Of a DNA stretch of 13,508 nucleotides, positions 1 through 13,508 are shown one piece after another. Position 1 is the first letter of the stretch. Every line of letters begins with the position of its first letter. Source of the stretch: Candidatus Zixiibacteriota bacterium (GTDB taxonomy: Bacteria; Zixibacteria; MSB-5A5; GN15; JAAZOE01); assembly GCA_043819555.1 (NCBI GenBank), contig JBDREQ010000023.1:1-13508 (forward strand), given 5' to 3'. The position numbers were made by a program.

Positions 1-3000
1 GATTTGGCTACACTTACTGATGATCGCTTCTTCAAACTCATTTGCGCTTATAATAACACTCCAAGGAAATGTCTGGACTTTCGAACCCCAGCTGAGTTAT
101 TTGGAGATAAACTGTTGCACTTCAAATGTGAATCCACCTCCCAGTCAGAACCGGTACGGTAACTATAAGCCCCATAGCCTGAAATCTCTGGCCAGAACAC
201 TCGAGACGCTAAGGACTTGGAGGCATTCGCCTTCTTTGCTCGCGCCTCTGAAAGACGAACAGTCGGACCCACTATGTGAGTGTTCCCAGACTCTTCTCGA
301 GGATACAACCTCCTCAAAAGTCCCATATCTAATGTGTTAGAAGAGGCTGCTGGTACAACGAGATTCTCCGTTCCAAGGAGAGATGAAAGTCGGATGCTAA
401 GTTGAAATCGCGAGTGAGCTACGGCGCTTGAGTCTGATCTGGTAGATGCTATCAAAGAGGAAACCAGAGCAAGGTCACCTTTCGATACCCGCCCTTCAGT
501 TGCCAAAACCTGCAAGTCCTGCATTTGCTGGTATAGTGTGGCCAGTCGTTTGTTTATCAACAAAGATTGATCATCCATCTGACGGGCATAGAGAAATATC
601 TCAGCAACTTGTTTCAATATTTCATTTCGCACGAGATCATTAGTTGCTTTGCTCTCATCGACATTCGTCGTGGCAATTTTACGTTGAGTTAAGCGTCGAC
701 CCCCGTCGAAAATTGGGATGGACAATTGTAGGTTTGCCTCATAAAGCTCCTCATCAAGAGGTGGAAATACGCCCTGTTGGTGTATTGGAGTAACGATATT
801 GGGTTCTTCATAGAGCGTATACCCAGCAGTTGCGTATAGCTGTGGTAGAAGTGATCCTGTTGCTTGACTGACTGCGGACCTGGAAGCACTAACTTGCGCC
901 TTGGTCATTGAGAGCCGTGGATTGATAGCCAAAGAGGAATCTATCGCCTCAGAGATTGTCACCTGTCTTTGGCCGAAAGTTGATCCGGTAGATGCTAGTA
1001 GGATGAAGCTGACAATCCAGACAACTGATTTATGATTAGTTTTCATTTTTCGGTCCTCCCAGTCCTATCCACTTTATTGAGGCTGTTCACGACAAAAGGG
1101 AGAAGCGATCCTGACATTTCCTGATGGGCCGGATTGGCAATGCCTAAACGACTCTGGATTGCCACCGCAGTTGCCATACCAAAAAACAGCGTCGAAATTT
1201 CGTTGGCTGATGGCTTGGCGTCGACTCCAACTATATCTGAAACGAGTTTCTCCAAAATCTCTTGATAACCCCCGATAATTGCCCTGATGTGCAGAACCAG
1301 TTCTTTCTGATTGCCCGAGGCAATCTCAGCCATAAACACTAAGGGAAGACCGCCACTATCGTTTACAAACTGTAAATGAAAAGTAACAACCTCTTGAAGT
1401 TTTACTTCGGGATCGAGTTCAGACCCGAGTATCTGCTTCATGGGACCCAGTAGATCACCTTGGATCTTCTCGATTATTGCTGTAAGCAATGCTGTCTTAT
1501 CGGGGAAATACCGATATGCGGTTGCCTCATTTATTCCCACAACGTCAGCAACTTTCCTCATAGTCAAAGCCTGAATACCCCCCTCACGGATGAGGGACAT
1601 TGCTTCAGTCACAATCTGCTCTTGTCTTTTCTTACCTTTTCTTCCAACAACCATATCTTCACCTCATCTATATAATCAAGCAAGTACTTGCTTATATTAT
1701 CGGTAATTGGATTAGTCTTGTCAAGAGATTTTTTTAAATAATCTTGGTCAACCTTGTAATCTGTTGTTCTACAATAGAATAGTTGAGCGGCTCACAACCA
1801 TTTGTGATATTAGAATGGATAGGATCTCTTTTAATTAGATCAACATGAGTCCTAAAGAATTCGACTGGTTTCAACAATATGGCTGCTAGATTACTACCAA
1901 TAAATAAGAAAGGAGATTCTCTAAACTATTATATAATAGCACCATACAAAAATAGCAAATTGTTGTGATTGTAATATGTTACCACACAACAATTTATATT
2001 AATGCGGAGGAGGTAGGATACGAATTAGGCCATTTCGTATAACTTTTTGCAGCCCCTTTAATTACGCTTAATTCGCTGAGTCAACATTGGTTAAGTTACT
2101 TCAAGTTGCGTCAAGTTGGAGCAAGTTAGTGGGTAGTTGGATATAGTTCGCGGTTAGAAAATGGTTAGAAAATCATTGACCGCAGCCTTTTCATAAGTGG
2201 CCAAATTGTGGCCACTTTTTTACAGAAGGAACATCTAATACCTGGTGATGCTGTACAAGGCTATCGTCGATTTGATCTGTTTTGAAGGTTTTTGAATTTT
2301 TGTGGACAAAAATAGGGCACTGGAATTATTCAATTTCAAAAAGTATAATTGAATCTTGATCAATTTCTGCCATAATTAGCATATCCTGGGCAATTGCTCT
2401 CCGGCGGGAGCAGTTATTATTCGCTCGGTTCCCAAGTCGGTTTTAAGAGTCACCAGGCTTTTTTCATTATCGGCTACCTGACCAATAATCGATGCATTTT
2501 TCCACCCCAATTTTGTTTTTAATATATTTAACGTATTATCTGCTTCAGGTGTAGGGACAAATAAGACAAACGTCCCTTCATTGGCGACCTGCATCGGATC
2601 ATACCCAAGGATTTCGCAGGCATTATTTACTTCAGGTGATATTGGAATTCCATTTTCTTCTAATGCAAAATGTAATTGAGAAGAGGCGGCCAACTCTGTC
2701 AGTGCCGATGACAACCCGCCTCGAGTCAGGTCGCGAAGACAGTTGATATTAACACCGTTATTAATCAGTGTCATAACCGTATCAGCCAAAGGCGCGCAGT
2801 CACTTTCTATTAAAGATTCAAATTGAAATCCTTCCCGAACTGACATAACTGCAATACCATGACAGCCAATGTCACGATTAATAATAATGGCATCTCCGGG
2901 GCTAATTGTTTCAGGTGAAATATTCAACTGATGGTTAATTATTCCCACGCCTGAAGTATTTATATAAACGCCATCACCCTTACCATGTTCAACGACCTTG

Positions 3001-12000: not shown

Positions 12001-13508
12001 TAATTATTATTTTTCTTTAAAAATTTGAAAATTGTTTTTACGGATGGATATATAAACTGTTTTACGGAGTTTTGACCAACCGTATAGCCGGAAAAGATAG
12101 TGCCATTGTTGGTTTTTTTTATTCTGTAATACCCATTGTTTTGATCATCGTAAATGCCAATCGGAAAATCTTCAAAATGATCTATAAATTCATAGACAAT
12201 GGCTTTATCTCTGACTGTAGGCCCAACTACTTCGTATTTATTCTTTTGAAGAGTTTTAAGAAGAAGTTTCATACTACCAAATTCAAGAAAGAATTTTGGA
12301 TAGCCTTCCATAATCCCTACTTTGTGATAAATTTCACAATTTTTCTTAATGAAAAGATATAATTCCTTCGTTATTTTGTCAATAAGTATATTGATTTATC
12401 TGAAAGTAATAATAAACACTCGCCACTGTTTTTCGAGAGTCAAGCACTCATTCGCGTTTTGTATCGGTAGAAATCGAGTAGAAAACCTTCTAACCCACAA
12501 TGCTAAAATGTTATACAACAATAGGTTATAAGTTCAAAGCGGGGGAGGTAGGATTCGACGAACGCCATTTTAGCTAACTTCTTAATACACAGCTAAATAC
12601 GCATAATTTGATGCCTACTATTACCTTAACAAACTTGTAGTTCCGTGTACTTCGATGTAGTTGCGTGTATTTCCAGGTAGTTCCCGGTTAGAAAATGGTT
12701 AGAAAATTACCCTCGAATTCCAAAAAATATTTATTGAACGTCATTAAAAACTTTTCGCCTTTTCAAGCCATAATATAAGAGGAACTTTAAATTTGGCAAA
12801 TGGCTTGAGACGATATTATGACGCACTTGCCAATTGTAAGGGTTTTCTTTTTTCTTAATAACTGCATTTAAATAGCTACATGGTACCATGCTGTCCATGA
12901 ATGTAAATGTGAGTTTGAGTTCAGAAAAAACCCGGGGCATCCCGCAAAAACACAACGGCCTAAAATTGGCGTGCCTTTGTTAATGATCTTTGAAATTATT
13001 TAAGGCAAGCGGCTTGATTAAATATTGGCGATATTCTTTCCTATTTTAAAAACAACTCACATAAGCTCGGGAAATCGAACTCCCTATTCGCATTGTGGAA
13101 CAGCAACTTATACCCTATTGTGGTCAAATCGCGACCTTTTTTGGGAAAATATAATGCTGTATTTGAGTGCTTGTGGACACCGCCAATGCTTAGTATCTAG
13201 CGCCCAATTTGTTTCCAAATCAGGCGCCAATGGATTTCCGGTGTTGATCCCCCATATGACATTCGGTAATCTGTTCAATTGCTGTGCATTCCACCTTAAC
13301 TCTCCGAGTAAAAAACTTCGAACCCACGGTGTAAAATAATGCCACGCAACATCTTACGTGAAATATGCGGAGGAGGTAGGATTCTACACGATCCATTTTG
13401 GTTAACTTTATGACATGTAGTTATTTACGCGCAATTTAATGCCCGTGCGCATGTTAACTTACTTGTAGTTCCGTGTAGTTCGATGTAGTTGCGTGTAGTT
13501 CCAGGTAG

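Follow-up and report, generated by a model that had tools for sequence, protein, structure and literature searches.

RESULTS

Organization of the locus

The window, by which we mean the whole stretch of 13,508 nt analyzed here (contig C23 of the genome under study), contains three copies of a ~270-bp block, all on the minus strand relative to the tRNA orientation, and an 11-gene [NiFe] hydrogenase and maturation operon (Table 1). When we re-read the sequence, the three copies lay where the survey's finding had placed them; as also stated there, no Rfam family matched the window. The transposase-like ORF at the left end, which we take to be IS30-like from its motif, lies in a repeat that is 99 to 100% identical at 10 other contig ends, the start of C11 among them. 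The region from 48 to 1654 had no DNA match in the congener, G001. The slot between blocks 3 and 2 held only ORFs of 74 and 104 amino acids, which matched no Pfam family and, in the test of small ORFs, had no relatives, and its positions 12747 to 12901 matched contig C43 of G001 at 76%.

Table 1. Features of the window, numbered from its first nucleotide
Feature	Position	Strand	Remarks
Transposase-like ORF, 3' end	1-141	+	Multicopy repeat at contig end; cuts the OEP gene
Outer-membrane efflux protein gene, cut short	48-1046	-	Pfam OEP, single OEP repeat; beyond block 1
TetR regulator gene	1043-1654	-	Pfam TetR_N; beyond block 1
Block 1, attR-type	2002-2173	-	P arm and core; P' flank partial only
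Block 1, tRNA 20-mer	2004-2023
Block 1, palindrome	2060-2073
Block 1, AACT repeats	about 2090-2151
Block 1, doubled TTTTCTAACC	2152-2172
Cargo, 11-gene [NiFe] hydrogenase and maturation operon	2376-12311	-	ORFs, Pfam
Block 2, complete attP-like junction	12465-12735	-	Sequence reading, blastn
Block 2, P' flank with degenerate doubled TTTCTAC	12465-12538
Block 2, tRNA 20-mer	12539-12558
Block 2, palindrome	12595-12608
Block 2, five AACTAC repeats	about 12630-12685
Block 2, doubled TTTTCTAACC	12686-12706
574-bp "empty" slot between blocks 3 and 2	12736-13309		No credible gene
Block 3, 3' two-thirds	13310-13508	-	Contig end cuts the copy; rest in C36:1-151
Block 3, P' flank	13310-13366
Block 3, tRNA 20-mer	13367-13386
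Block 3, palindrome	13423-13436
Block 3, AACTAC repeats	13455-13508

The operon encodes, in order, an Fe-S beta subunit, a cNMP-binding protein, an NAD-binding gamma subunit, the small subunit, and the large subunit, followed by HycI, HypA, HypF, HypC, HypD, and HypE. Its Pfam domains (NiFeSe_Hases, Oxidored_q6, Fer4_22, and NAD_binding_1 with DHODB_Fe-S_bind) give the four-subunit make-up of the group 3b type; "group 3b" was the survey's label, and we keep it as a putative assignment. As the survey had described, the operon is bracketed by two direct blocks (2 and 1) with no recombinase between them: recombinase families had no Pfam match in the 11 operon proteins or in the 15 window ORFs scanned, and relaxase and transfer families had none among the 11 proteins. 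The ORFs scanned on C36, C29, C62, and C46 likewise matched no recombinase, relaxase, or transfer family in Pfam, and none of the segments showed conjugation or mobilization genes.

With a GC content of 0.406, the operon falls at the 5th percentile of 5-kb windows of the genome; the cargo segments range from 0.367 to 0.479, and 6 of 16 are among the lowest 5% of genome windows. In G001, C23, C29, and C36 had no DNA match beyond the blocks and a single 155-bp stretch, and the DNA around the blocks is, as judged by such comparisons, accessory. A large subunit of the hydrogenase could not be detected in G001 (97% complete) but was present in all four other relatives tested. In the four of four relatives that carry the operon, it is free of blocks and is an ordinary conserved operon, with identical gene order and no blocks in G034, G050, and G012. 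There was no sign of recent transfer of the operon, the proteins being 46 to 79% identical.

Architecture and number of the blocks

A complete block consists of a doubled TTTTCTAACC, five 10-bp AACTAC repeats, an imperfect palindrome, the last 20 nt of tRNA-Ser(UGA), and a 3' flank. The survey had recorded the repeats and the doubled TTTTCTAACC, both of which are present, and a 14-bp palindrome, which is also present but is perfect in one block only (C29), the window copies having one or two mismatches. Absent from that description was the end of the 3' flank, where our reading of the sequence found a second, degenerate doubled TTTCTAAC. In the tRNA orientation, the P arm comprises two predicted arm-type sites (TTTTCTAACC) 11 bp apart, the AACTAC repeats phased at 10 bp, and the AATTACGCGTAATT-like palindrome; the core extends from the T-loop through the discriminator base of the tRNA; and the P' arm of about 85 nt has two further TTTCTAAC sites at its end. 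Identity to the tRNA begins in the T-loop at (C)GAATCC, and since the 5' half of the T stem is absent, the blocks have no tRNA-like fold. The cassette blocks all stop flush behind the second TTTCTAAC pair, with no terminal inverted repeats in the blocks and no target-site duplication seen around them. Block 1, which lacks the GGTTCGAAG/TTTCTAAC flank, is of an AACTTG-type subtype, as are the terminal blocks of G010 and G050, and is 85% identical to the sole block of G001.

The genome contains nine blocks, three of them in the window, as well as a genuine tRNA-Ser(UGA) gene whose 3' flank is the same. The 11 copies counted by the survey included one copy twice, since C23:13310-13508 and C36:1-151 are the halves of a single block (we confirmed the identical 76-nt overlap between the C23 end and the C36 start), and also C79:121-211, which is the 3' end and flank of the genuine tRNA gene. 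Because the starts of C1 and C79 overlap by 141 nt, a single tRNA-Ser gene is visible at two contig ends. Searches of the genome returned 10 places with block 2 as the blastn query and 11 with the C29 copy. The tRNA-derived 20-mer TCGAATCCTACCTCCTCCGC occurred with at most two mismatches at eight non-tRNA places and in the tRNA gene itself, whereas ~0.01 such matches would be expected by chance in 3.35 Mb by our own arithmetic; the block at C55:10700-10871 has a degenerate tRNA fragment only.

Pairwise, the blocks are 67 to 91% identical over 74 to 198 nt, with one 29-nt stretch at 97% as an outlier (67 to 92% over 150 to 280 bp in the survey); block 2 is 84 to 86% identical to the C29 and C62 blocks. 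Matches were found in 9 of 60 relatives searched, compared with 5 of 30 before. The C36 and C23 scaffold has four blocks in a row, and contig breaks obscure the order of most segments. Since the C55 blocks lie a few kilobases from DNA that is syntenic with G001, the blocks of the genome need not all share one array.

Occupied and empty tRNA-Ser sites in related genomes

The tRNA-Ser(UGA) gene is followed directly by a hairpin flank (cttttagagcc...ggctcttaaaccc) in G036, G025, G022, G053, and G006, which represent the empty site. In G010 and G050, this flank stands behind the tRNA fragment of a block, and behind the tRNA gene come the P' flank and then cargo of 5.3 kb (OEP and AcrB) or 3.8 kb, respectively. 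Block and cargo together stand between the tRNA and the hairpin flank native to it, so what was inserted is the two as one unit, with the 20-nt core at its bounds. G001 has the same layout with K+-channel cargo of 2.2 kb, and G028 has a single 246-aa gene behind the tRNA and a decayed P arm.

The 20-mer recurs in direct orientation 2.2 to 5.3 kb behind the tRNA in G001, G010, and G050; the inserted DNA has the tRNA gene on one side and a direct copy of the gene's 3' end on the other, and at the empty site of relatives the tRNA is joined to the sequence that trails the distal repeat. The genes upstream of the tRNA are common to the genome under study (C1) and G001, and beyond its block G001 continues into homologues of C11; this conserved synteny marks both ends of the insertion site. 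At the level of sequence, these arrangements establish site-specific insertion at tRNA-Ser with duplication of the core.

Link to a tyrosine integrase

In G045, three TTTCTAAC sites stand between tRNA-Ser(UGA) and the gene for a 375-aa integrase (PF00589 and PF13102). The island continues for ~36 kb after the integrase with DNA methylase, Vsr, HerA-like, and TraG-like genes and ends in a doubled TTTTCTAACA, six AACTTC-type repeats, a palindrome-like stretch, and a partial core. Among 12 close homologues of the integrase (identity of 50% or more) whose upstream DNA we inspected, nine lie directly behind a whole tRNA gene (eight tRNA-Ser of four anticodons and one tRNA-Gln) and one lies behind the 3' part of a tRNA close to a contig end, and the arm "caataagttattgaca ... 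TTTCTAAC n3 TTTCTAAC ... ATG" is conserved in all ten tRNA-linked homologues. Intact islands have the integrase gene at one end and share the arm sequences, and both block arms are homologous to such integrase-bearing islands.

Three blocks of G057 have the core GAATCCCTGCCTCTCCGC (with a T at one position in one block), a sequence that forms the 3' end of the tRNA-Ser(CGA) upstream of an integrase gene in G057, and their arms match the block arms of the genome under study. The blocks here have the tRNA-Ser(UGA) end instead; on this comparison, the core demonstrably changes along with the target tRNA.

According to the survey, the element had no link to any integrase of the genome. Five tyrosine recombinases are encoded in the genome (two on C7 and one each on C18, C6, and C53), and none of the five adjoins a block; C53:56210-57238, however, is a homologue 63 to 64% identical to the G045 integrase and has upstream of it the promoter and TTTCTAAC arm region found in the tRNA-linked homologues, which contradicts that statement. 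This integrase is of phage type, with a SAM-like N-terminal domain. Because the C53 ORF runs off the contig, its catalytic C terminus is missing from the assembly. No tRNA and no intact core were found upstream of it, and its counterpart on C8 of G001 is full length. A tblastn search of the genome with the G045 integrase detected no integrase remnants outside C53, C6, C7, and C18.

DISCUSSION

Our analyses indicate that the blocks are very probably composite attachment sites of tyrosine-integrase islands that insert into tRNA-Ser 3' ends in the Ignavibacteriales and their kin. The empty and occupied sites, the G045 island, and the G057 core all support the survey's reading of an attachment site in which the crossover segment derives from a tRNA and the repeats are of arm type. 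An incoming circle with P-core-P' would recombine with the core of the tRNA or with one that the array already contained; the tRNA would be rebuilt on insertion and the displaced core left behind the P arm, and repeated insertions would yield P-core-P' junctions between cargo segments. In the order of insertion events that we infer, block 1 would be an old attR-type end, common to G001, and the hydrogenase/hyp operon would be cargo between blocks 2 and 1. The N-terminal domain of the integrase would bind TTTCTAAC, and the AACTAC repeats, by analogy with lambda attP, may bind an excisionase or other bending factor. The C53 integrase could move the segments only in trans, or in cis within a larger composite.

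The segments are a tandem accretion of integrase-less (CIME-like) units, which is a known kind. Since they lack an integrase, they fit the CIME definition, and the window cassette has retained attL and attR while integration and transfer genes are absent. The survey had proposed integrase-less mobile cassettes. The first part stands, with no integrase in the segments, but we see no sign that the cassettes move today, the blocks being 67 to 91% alike, and we think that most segments are old and are now fixed or seldom moved. Repeats that fence off integrase-less gene blocks are a good instance of a known gene-acquisition route.

A bolder reading, which we consider unlikely, is a tRNA-anchored cassette system that is integron-like in its working but built of lambda-type parts, with the integrase acting in trans. 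Cargo plus one complete P-core-P' site would be cut out in circular form and integrated again at tRNA-Ser or another block by the resident integrase (the C53 gene and its G001:C8 counterpart), which would shuffle and spread metabolic operons; whole operons, such as that of the hydrogenase, would be stacked, shuffled, and exported. Integrase-less cassettes are indeed frequent, being found in three or four single-cassette relatives (G001, G010, G050, and G028) and in every segment examined here. The blocks also keep both arms, including the outermost arm-type pairs at which they end flush; an integrase of the right family is present, at full length in G001; and TrkA-type K+-channel cargo, 73 to 74% identical, adjoins blocks or tRNA-Ser in three genomes in differing arrangements. 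Nevertheless, the blocks differ by 9 to 33%, so any movement inside the genome is old, and no identical cassettes occur at two places. The C53 integrase has no adjoining intact core and an unassembled 3' end, and the cargo is an entire 11-gene operon with a promoter-like site of its own (12382 to 12354) outside the block.

Simple accretion at a tRNA does not predict the dispersal seen in G061, a one-contig genome of another lineage in which five single blocks lie at 0.30 to 1.16 Mb on both strands, tRNA-Ser lies at 2.98 Mb, and no partner core was found within about 7 kb of the blocks. Such dispersal would suit a MITE-like element, that is, a self-mobile, non-autonomous repeat whose tRNA stretch is incidental and between whose copies the genes are not cargo; the variable number of AACTAC repeats among copies and the loci in G031, G057, and G034 that match the arm and repeat part only would suit it as well. 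We nonetheless regard it as very improbable, since the blocks show neither terminal inverted repeats nor target-site duplications, the unit inserted between the tRNA and its native hairpin flank in G010 and G050 includes the cargo, the G057 core has switched to the 3' end of another tRNA in step with the tRNA next to the integrase, and integrase-bearing islands have ends homologous to both arms. The survey had kept open a promoter or operator module, in which the doubled TTTTCTAACC and phased AACTAC repeats would be transcription-factor sites that co-regulate downstream genes. Regulator binding sites typically show direct repeats at 10- to 11-bp spacing, as these blocks do; a same-strand ORF begins 76 to 350 nt downstream of five blocks in the genome; and the P' arm of intact islands overlaps the TTGACA-17-TATATT promoter of the integrase gene. 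The TTGACA box, however, is lost from the cassette blocks, none of the eight sigma-70-like matches near the window copies falls inside a block, and the number of such matches around them is no higher than in shuffles. Moreover, the C29 block lies between convergent genes, the KefB-like gene downstream of a C55 block is on the opposite strand, and two of the ORFs downstream are short and yielded neither a Pfam match nor, in the test of small ORFs, any relatives. A regulatory module would also leave the tRNA fragment and the empty and occupied sites unexplained, and we find it scarcely credible.

Tandem accretion of attachment-site-bounded units, the reading that we prefer, can be set beside several known systems. 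CIMEs have reportedly been treated by Pavlovic (2004) and Bellanger (2011). CIMEs and tandem accretion were defined for ICESt1/ICESt3-type elements of Streptococcus thermophilus (PMC5704250). As in those systems, an integrase of the matching type is encoded elsewhere in the genome. The present segments differ in that they show no conjugation or mobilization genes, their host is an uncultured member of the Ignavibacteriales, and up to four successive junctions each have a full ~270-bp two-armed site. A further difference is that decay from complete elements is assumed rather than seen, given the flush block ends and the absence of integrase remnants. The ssrA islands of Dehalococcoides include a set without an integration module that is discussed as possible CIMEs (McMurdie et al. 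2011, PMC3146451). There, multiple tandem islands lie behind a single-copy RNA gene, 20 bp from that gene's 3' end recur as the direct repeat that bounds each island, with insertion in the T-loop, and low-GC respiratory or energy-metabolism operons form the cargo, all of which resembles the arrangement here. The same paper assigns those islands a CcrB-like serine recombinase and a tmRNA target, in contrast to the tyrosine integrase with predicted arm-type sites and the tRNA-Ser target found here, and an integration module that is kept in many islands, whereas none of our segments examined has one.

The block itself most resembles a phage attachment site in layout. In lambda attP, arm-type sites flank the core, and Xis, Fis, and IHF sites lie between the outer arm sites and the core. 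The block likewise has predicted arm-type sites on both arms around the core, phased repeats at the positions that the Xis, Fis, and IHF sites occupy in lambda, and a total length of about 240 to 270 bp. Unlike lambda attP, the blocks are chromosomal junctions rather than phage-borne, and the integrase linked to them (PF00589 plus PF13102) is only distantly related to lambda Int. Williams is said to have distinguished, in 2002, sublocation classes of integration within tRNA genes. The identity of the blocks to the tRNA from the T-loop to the 3' end is also a likeness to the tRNA-targeting integrase islands that the Islander database covers (PMC4383910).

The likeness to integrons lies in recombinase-less gene units, each with one recombination site, near a fixed attachment point. 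An integron has an IntI-type integrase, with attI and a promoter by the array, and its attC sites fold as single-stranded, imperfect hairpins next to mostly single, promoterless ORFs. Here, no IntI-type integrase adjoins the block array; the blocks are two-armed, double-stranded att sites rather than folded attC hairpins; and the units are multigenic, with a 10.3-kb, 11-gene cassette whose promoter-like site lies outside the block. When one strand of block 2 was folded as DNA, its z score was -0.85, and an equal or better fold was obtained with 42 of 200 shuffles. All three integron features tested (IntI-type integrase, attC folding in this strand of block 2, and promoterless single ORFs) were thus lacking, and the survey's terms "integron-like" and "new" were overstated for a layout known in the literature as tandem accretion with cis-mobilizable elements (PMC5704250, PMC3146451). 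The tycheposon islands of Prochlorococcus (bioRxiv 10.1101/2020.12.28.424599) differ from our segments in having their own integrase and replication genes, neither of which the segments contain. According to the same text, they resemble them in adjacent cargo elements at a tRNA with a partial tRNA copy as the sole separator, in metabolic or adaptive cargo, and in older partial tRNAs scattered over the island.

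The repeat blocks are sharply bounded and have five parts

The host genome (G000) is assembled in 79 contigs totaling 3.35 Mb, and the window is all of contig C23 (13,508 bp). A search of this genome with a full copy of the repeat returned 11 places, three of them in the window, which confirms the survey's finding of the repeats and of 11 places but not of 11 separate copies. One copy is split by a contig break, with 76 identical nucleotides common to the end of C23 and the start of C36, and one place is the genuine tRNA-Ser(UGA) gene with its flank, a gene that is present at two contig ends (C1 and C79, overlapping by 141 nt). 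When the split copy is counted once and the tRNA gene is set aside, nine blocks are therefore left. The tRNA-derived 20-mer was found with ≤2 mismatches at eight non-tRNA places in G000, and a ninth, degenerate copy lies in C55.

Alignment of 27 blocks from 13 genomes in the tRNA orientation showed sharply bounded blocks of five parts, which make up a P arm (A-R-Pal), a core (O), and a P' arm (F-A'). The match of O to the tRNA starts at (C)GAATCC, in the T-loop; O lacks the 5' half of the T stem. The F-A' flank is also found 3' of the true tRNA gene in G000, G010, G034, G050, G064, and G048. Block 1 comprises A-R-Pal-O and just the beginning of F. Its identity to the one block of the congener G001 is 85%, and it is of an AACTTG-type subtype to which the terminal blocks of G010 and G050 belong as well.

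Features of the window, other contigs, and related genomes, and parts of the block
Feature	Location	Strand	Description
Block 1	window 2002-2173	minus	repeat copy
Block 2	window 12465-12735	minus	repeat copy
Block 3	window 13310-13508	minus	repeat copy
[NiFe] hydrogenase operon	between blocks 1 and 2	minus	11 genes
Transposase-like ORF end	window 1-141		...YNNTPRKCLDFRTPAELF...; contig starts inside ORF
Multicopy repeat at C79 end	C79:6862-7002		100% identical at ends of C4, C76, and C6
Integrase homologue in G000	C53:56210-57238		63-64% identical to G045 integrase
TrkA-N/TrkA-C K+ channel loci	L038:8255-9943, L111:4447-6111, L076:5362-7101		three different arrangements
Single blocks of G061	L096, L101, L104, L107, L108
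A			pair of TTTTCTAACC motifs, 11 bp apart
R			five AACTAC-type repeats, spacing 10 bp
Pal			AATTACGCGTAATT-like palindrome, perfect in C29 only
O			final 20 nt of tRNA-Ser(UGA)
F-A'			flank of ~85 nt, closing with a second, degenerate TTTCTAAC pair

In the attP site of phage lambda, which spans ~250 bp, both arms carry arm-type sites, and accessory factors bind between these outer sites and the core. The block resembles it in its two-armed layout, its mid-arm repeats, and its similar size.

An exact doubled TTTTCTAACC was also observed ~210 to 250 nt upstream of a tRNA 3' end at four loci (L064, L066, L074, and L089) in records titled Clostridia, Bacillota, and Campylobacterota; at L089, the neighboring gene encodes an integrase of 395 aa. 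The arm motif may occur far beyond the order. Three loci have record titles that point to another phylum, but at least one of the genomes concerned (G060, the same as G063) falls in the order of G000, and we do not claim cross-phylum transfer.

Empty and occupied sites delimit the inserted unit

At the empty site, seen in G036, G025, G022, G053, and G006, the hairpin flank "cttttagagcc...ggctcttaaaccc" lies directly 3' of the tRNA, and in G053 a GIY-YIG gene comes next. In G010 and G050, F-A' and then cargo (OEP and AcrB genes in G010, two unrelated genes in G050) lie behind the tRNA, and the same hairpin comes after the O of the block. The same cargo position is occupied by a K+ channel gene in G001, and G028 has a single 246-aa gene at the site, with a decayed P arm. 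Comparison of the empty and occupied sites therefore shows that the inserted unit consists of the cargo together with the two arms and lies between two copies of O.

No conserved small cassette protein (a possible excisionase) was found downstream of the blocks in an all-against-all comparison of 11 small ORFs; the only mutual matches were those among three GIY-YIG proteins from related genomes. Their gene natively adjoins the empty site and does not belong to the element. The TrkA-N/TrkA-C K+ channel gene adjoins tRNA-Ser or a block, at 73 to 74% identity, in G001, G064, and G057 (the same as G062). We rejected the idea that it represents the same cassette as the KefB-like gene of C55, as the sole match of the G001 protein is to C12 (27%).

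A tRNA-Ser integrase family shares the arms of the blocks

Behind the tRNA of G045 come three TTTCTAAC sites, a TTGACA-17-TATATT promoter, and the gene for a 375-aa integrase with matches to PF00589 and PF13102. The island then contains DNA methylase, Vsr, HerA-like, and TraG-like genes as well as a second integrase, and some 36 kb on it has an A-R-Pal block with a partial O. Across 60 relatives, homologues of the G045 integrase at ≥50% identity were present in 13 genomes, G045 and G000 included. We inspected the upstream regions of 12 close homologues, 9 of which lie directly behind a whole tRNA gene (8 tRNA-Ser genes with anticodon UGA, GGA, GCU, or CGA and 1 tRNA-Gln gene), while another lies behind a tRNA 3' part close to a contig end. 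The arrangement "caataagttattgaca ... TTTCTAAC n3 TTTCTAAC" precedes the start codon in all 10 tRNA-linked homologues. In G057, all three blocks retain A, R, and Pal, but O is replaced by GAATCCCTGCCTCTCCGC, the 3' terminus of the tRNA-Ser(CGA) gene that precedes one G057 integrase. O changes with the target tRNA.

The survey had linked no integrase to the element. G000 encodes five tyrosine recombinases in all, one of which, on C53, is a homologue of the G045 integrase with the same promoter and TTTCTAAC region upstream, so that statement is out of date. Neither a tRNA nor an intact O adjoins the C53 gene, and its ORF leaves the contig after residue 342; a search with the C-terminal 50 residues of the G045 integrase did not find the 3' end. 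The G001 counterpart is full length (376 aa). The C53 integrase may act on the blocks.

The blocks are attachment sites, as the survey had proposed, and belong to a tRNA-Ser integrase family; the empty and occupied sites, the integrase islands with the same arms, and the correspondence of O to the target tRNA bear this out. The site can be defined by the TTTCTAAC arm motif, which is kept across integrases targeting four tRNA-Ser isoacceptors and one tRNA-Gln, by five phased AACTAC repeats, and by a core that varies with the target tRNA. Defined in this way, such islands, and derivatives that lack the integrase, become findable in metagenome bins where gene-based finders see nothing.

At C6:4911-6297 (L058), a hairpin, a doubled TTTTCTAACAGTTTTCTAACA, and the ORF of a 443-aa tyrosine integrase come after a tRNA-Met, and the 3' end of this ORF overlaps the tRNA-Met. 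No second copy of the tRNA-Met end was found in the G000 genome. This locus seems to represent a second family of islands that shares the arm motif.

The hydrogenase operon is cargo in a stack of foreign segments

The operon between blocks 1 and 2 has genes for the four subunits of a [NiFe] hydrogenase, for a cNMP-binding protein, and for HycI and HypA, -F, -C, -D, and -E. When C23, C29, and C36 were compared with G001, no DNA match was found beyond the blocks and one short stretch, and G001, which is 97% complete, yielded no hydrogenase large subunit. The large subunit is present at 65 to 70% identity in G010, G012, G034, and G050, with no block, core, or arm motif in the 15 to 20 kb around each hydrogenase operon. 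Three of these four relatives share the G000 gene order; G010 has the structural genes and HycI only. The GC content of the hydrogenase cassette, 0.406, corresponds to the 5th percentile of 5-kb windows of the genome, and that of the other cargo segments ranges from 0.367 to 0.479. The operon lies among stacked foreign segments behind tRNA-Ser integrase attachment sites, which suggests a route by which an uncultured member of the Ignavibacteriales, unlike its congener, obtained a [NiFe] hydrogenase and all of the maturation genes that go with it.

HypE is 70% identical to that of the f4 genome G034 versus 55% to that of G012, which is of the same family as G000. At L151 (G034:C5) and L152 (G050:C67), HypE is abutted by a histidine kinase, a response-regulator/Na-sulfate symporter, and a response regulator, homologues (55 to 75%) of the C79 genes that lie directly behind tRNA-Ser in G000. 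In G000, this tRNA-proximal set and the hydrogenase cassette (window 2376) are apart and mutually flipped. These observations hint that the kinase/regulator set and the hydrogenase operon came together from an f4-like donor and later parted.

Within the operon, the 154-aa cNMP-binding protein gene (window 10710-11174) is the best-conserved noncatalytic gene across relatives (71 to 75% identity). On the other side of block 1, C23:1-2001 has no match in G001; the proposal that C23:1-2003 is the native chromosomal flank past the array was unsupported, as G001 runs into C11 homologues.

Alternative readings and known systems

The reading of the block as a promoter module found no support: none of the eight promoter-like hits falls within the window blocks, their counts are not above those of shuffles, and two blocks lie between genes that could not be driven from them. 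For a structured RNA or attC-like hairpin, Rfam gave no match on the window, and block 2 shows nothing unusual in its folding (z = -0.85).

Some points fit less readily with blocks as the remains of integrase islands. The single-contig genome G061 has five single blocks at 0.30 to 1.16 Mb (a 0.9-Mb span), on both strands and with from about 1 or 2 to 6 AACTAC repeats; its tRNA-Ser is at 2.98 Mb, inside a masked (N) stretch. The C55 blocks lie a few kilobases from DNA syntenic with G001. All cassette blocks stop flush after A', exactly where the integrase gene of intact islands starts, and no integrase remnants were found in G000, so loss of the integrase by decay must be assumed. These three points leave room for integrase-less units that may be made and moved in trans and, with lower likelihood, for a block that spreads on its own.

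The survey's suggestion of a new integron-like system goes beyond the evidence. A review (PMC5704250) defines tandem accretion with integrase-less segments (cis-mobilizable elements [CIMEs]), and the layout of blocks and cassettes fits that description; this is no new kind of system, one of its sort being already in print. A close parallel is offered by the Dehalococcoides ssrA islands (PMC3146451), which have a 20-bp repeat of the RNA gene 3' end, T-loop insertion, and respiratory operons as cargo, and of which those without an integration module are discussed there as possible CIMEs. The Prochlorococcus tycheposon islands (bioRxiv 10.1101/2020.12.28.424599) are a further parallel. Our literature search returned no title on Ignavibacteriales tRNA-Ser islands or the TTTCTAAC arm motif, which is not proof of absence in print. 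What is gained is a usefully defined integrase/att family with a hydrogenase operon as cargo.

Assembly breaks and additional observations

The repeats also explain assembly break points of G000. Among block-bearing contigs, the only end overlaps joining them are C1-C79 and C23-C36; the C55 end overlaps C42, and the C23 start and C79 end both terminate in multicopy repeats. The repeat at the C23 start, whose transposase-like ORF we take to be IS30-like by motif, recurs at 99 to 100% identity at 10 other contig ends, the C11 start among them, and truncates an OEP gene at 48-1046.

Just beside a C55 block, pyruvate kinase is encoded in two overlapping ORFs (272 and 92 aa; C55:13491-14566 [L003]), suggesting a frameshift or an assembly error. 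On C20 (140560-145200), two copies of a ~130-nt repeat that includes CTTTCTAACATTTTTCTAACA, with a third, looser doubled motif, surround a 1,286-aa gene. Finally, a second fragment resembling a tRNA 3' end (GGGGATTCGATTCCCCCACCTC) lies at C79:275-300 (L001), 130 nt behind tRNA-Ser, and may be the scar of a different element.
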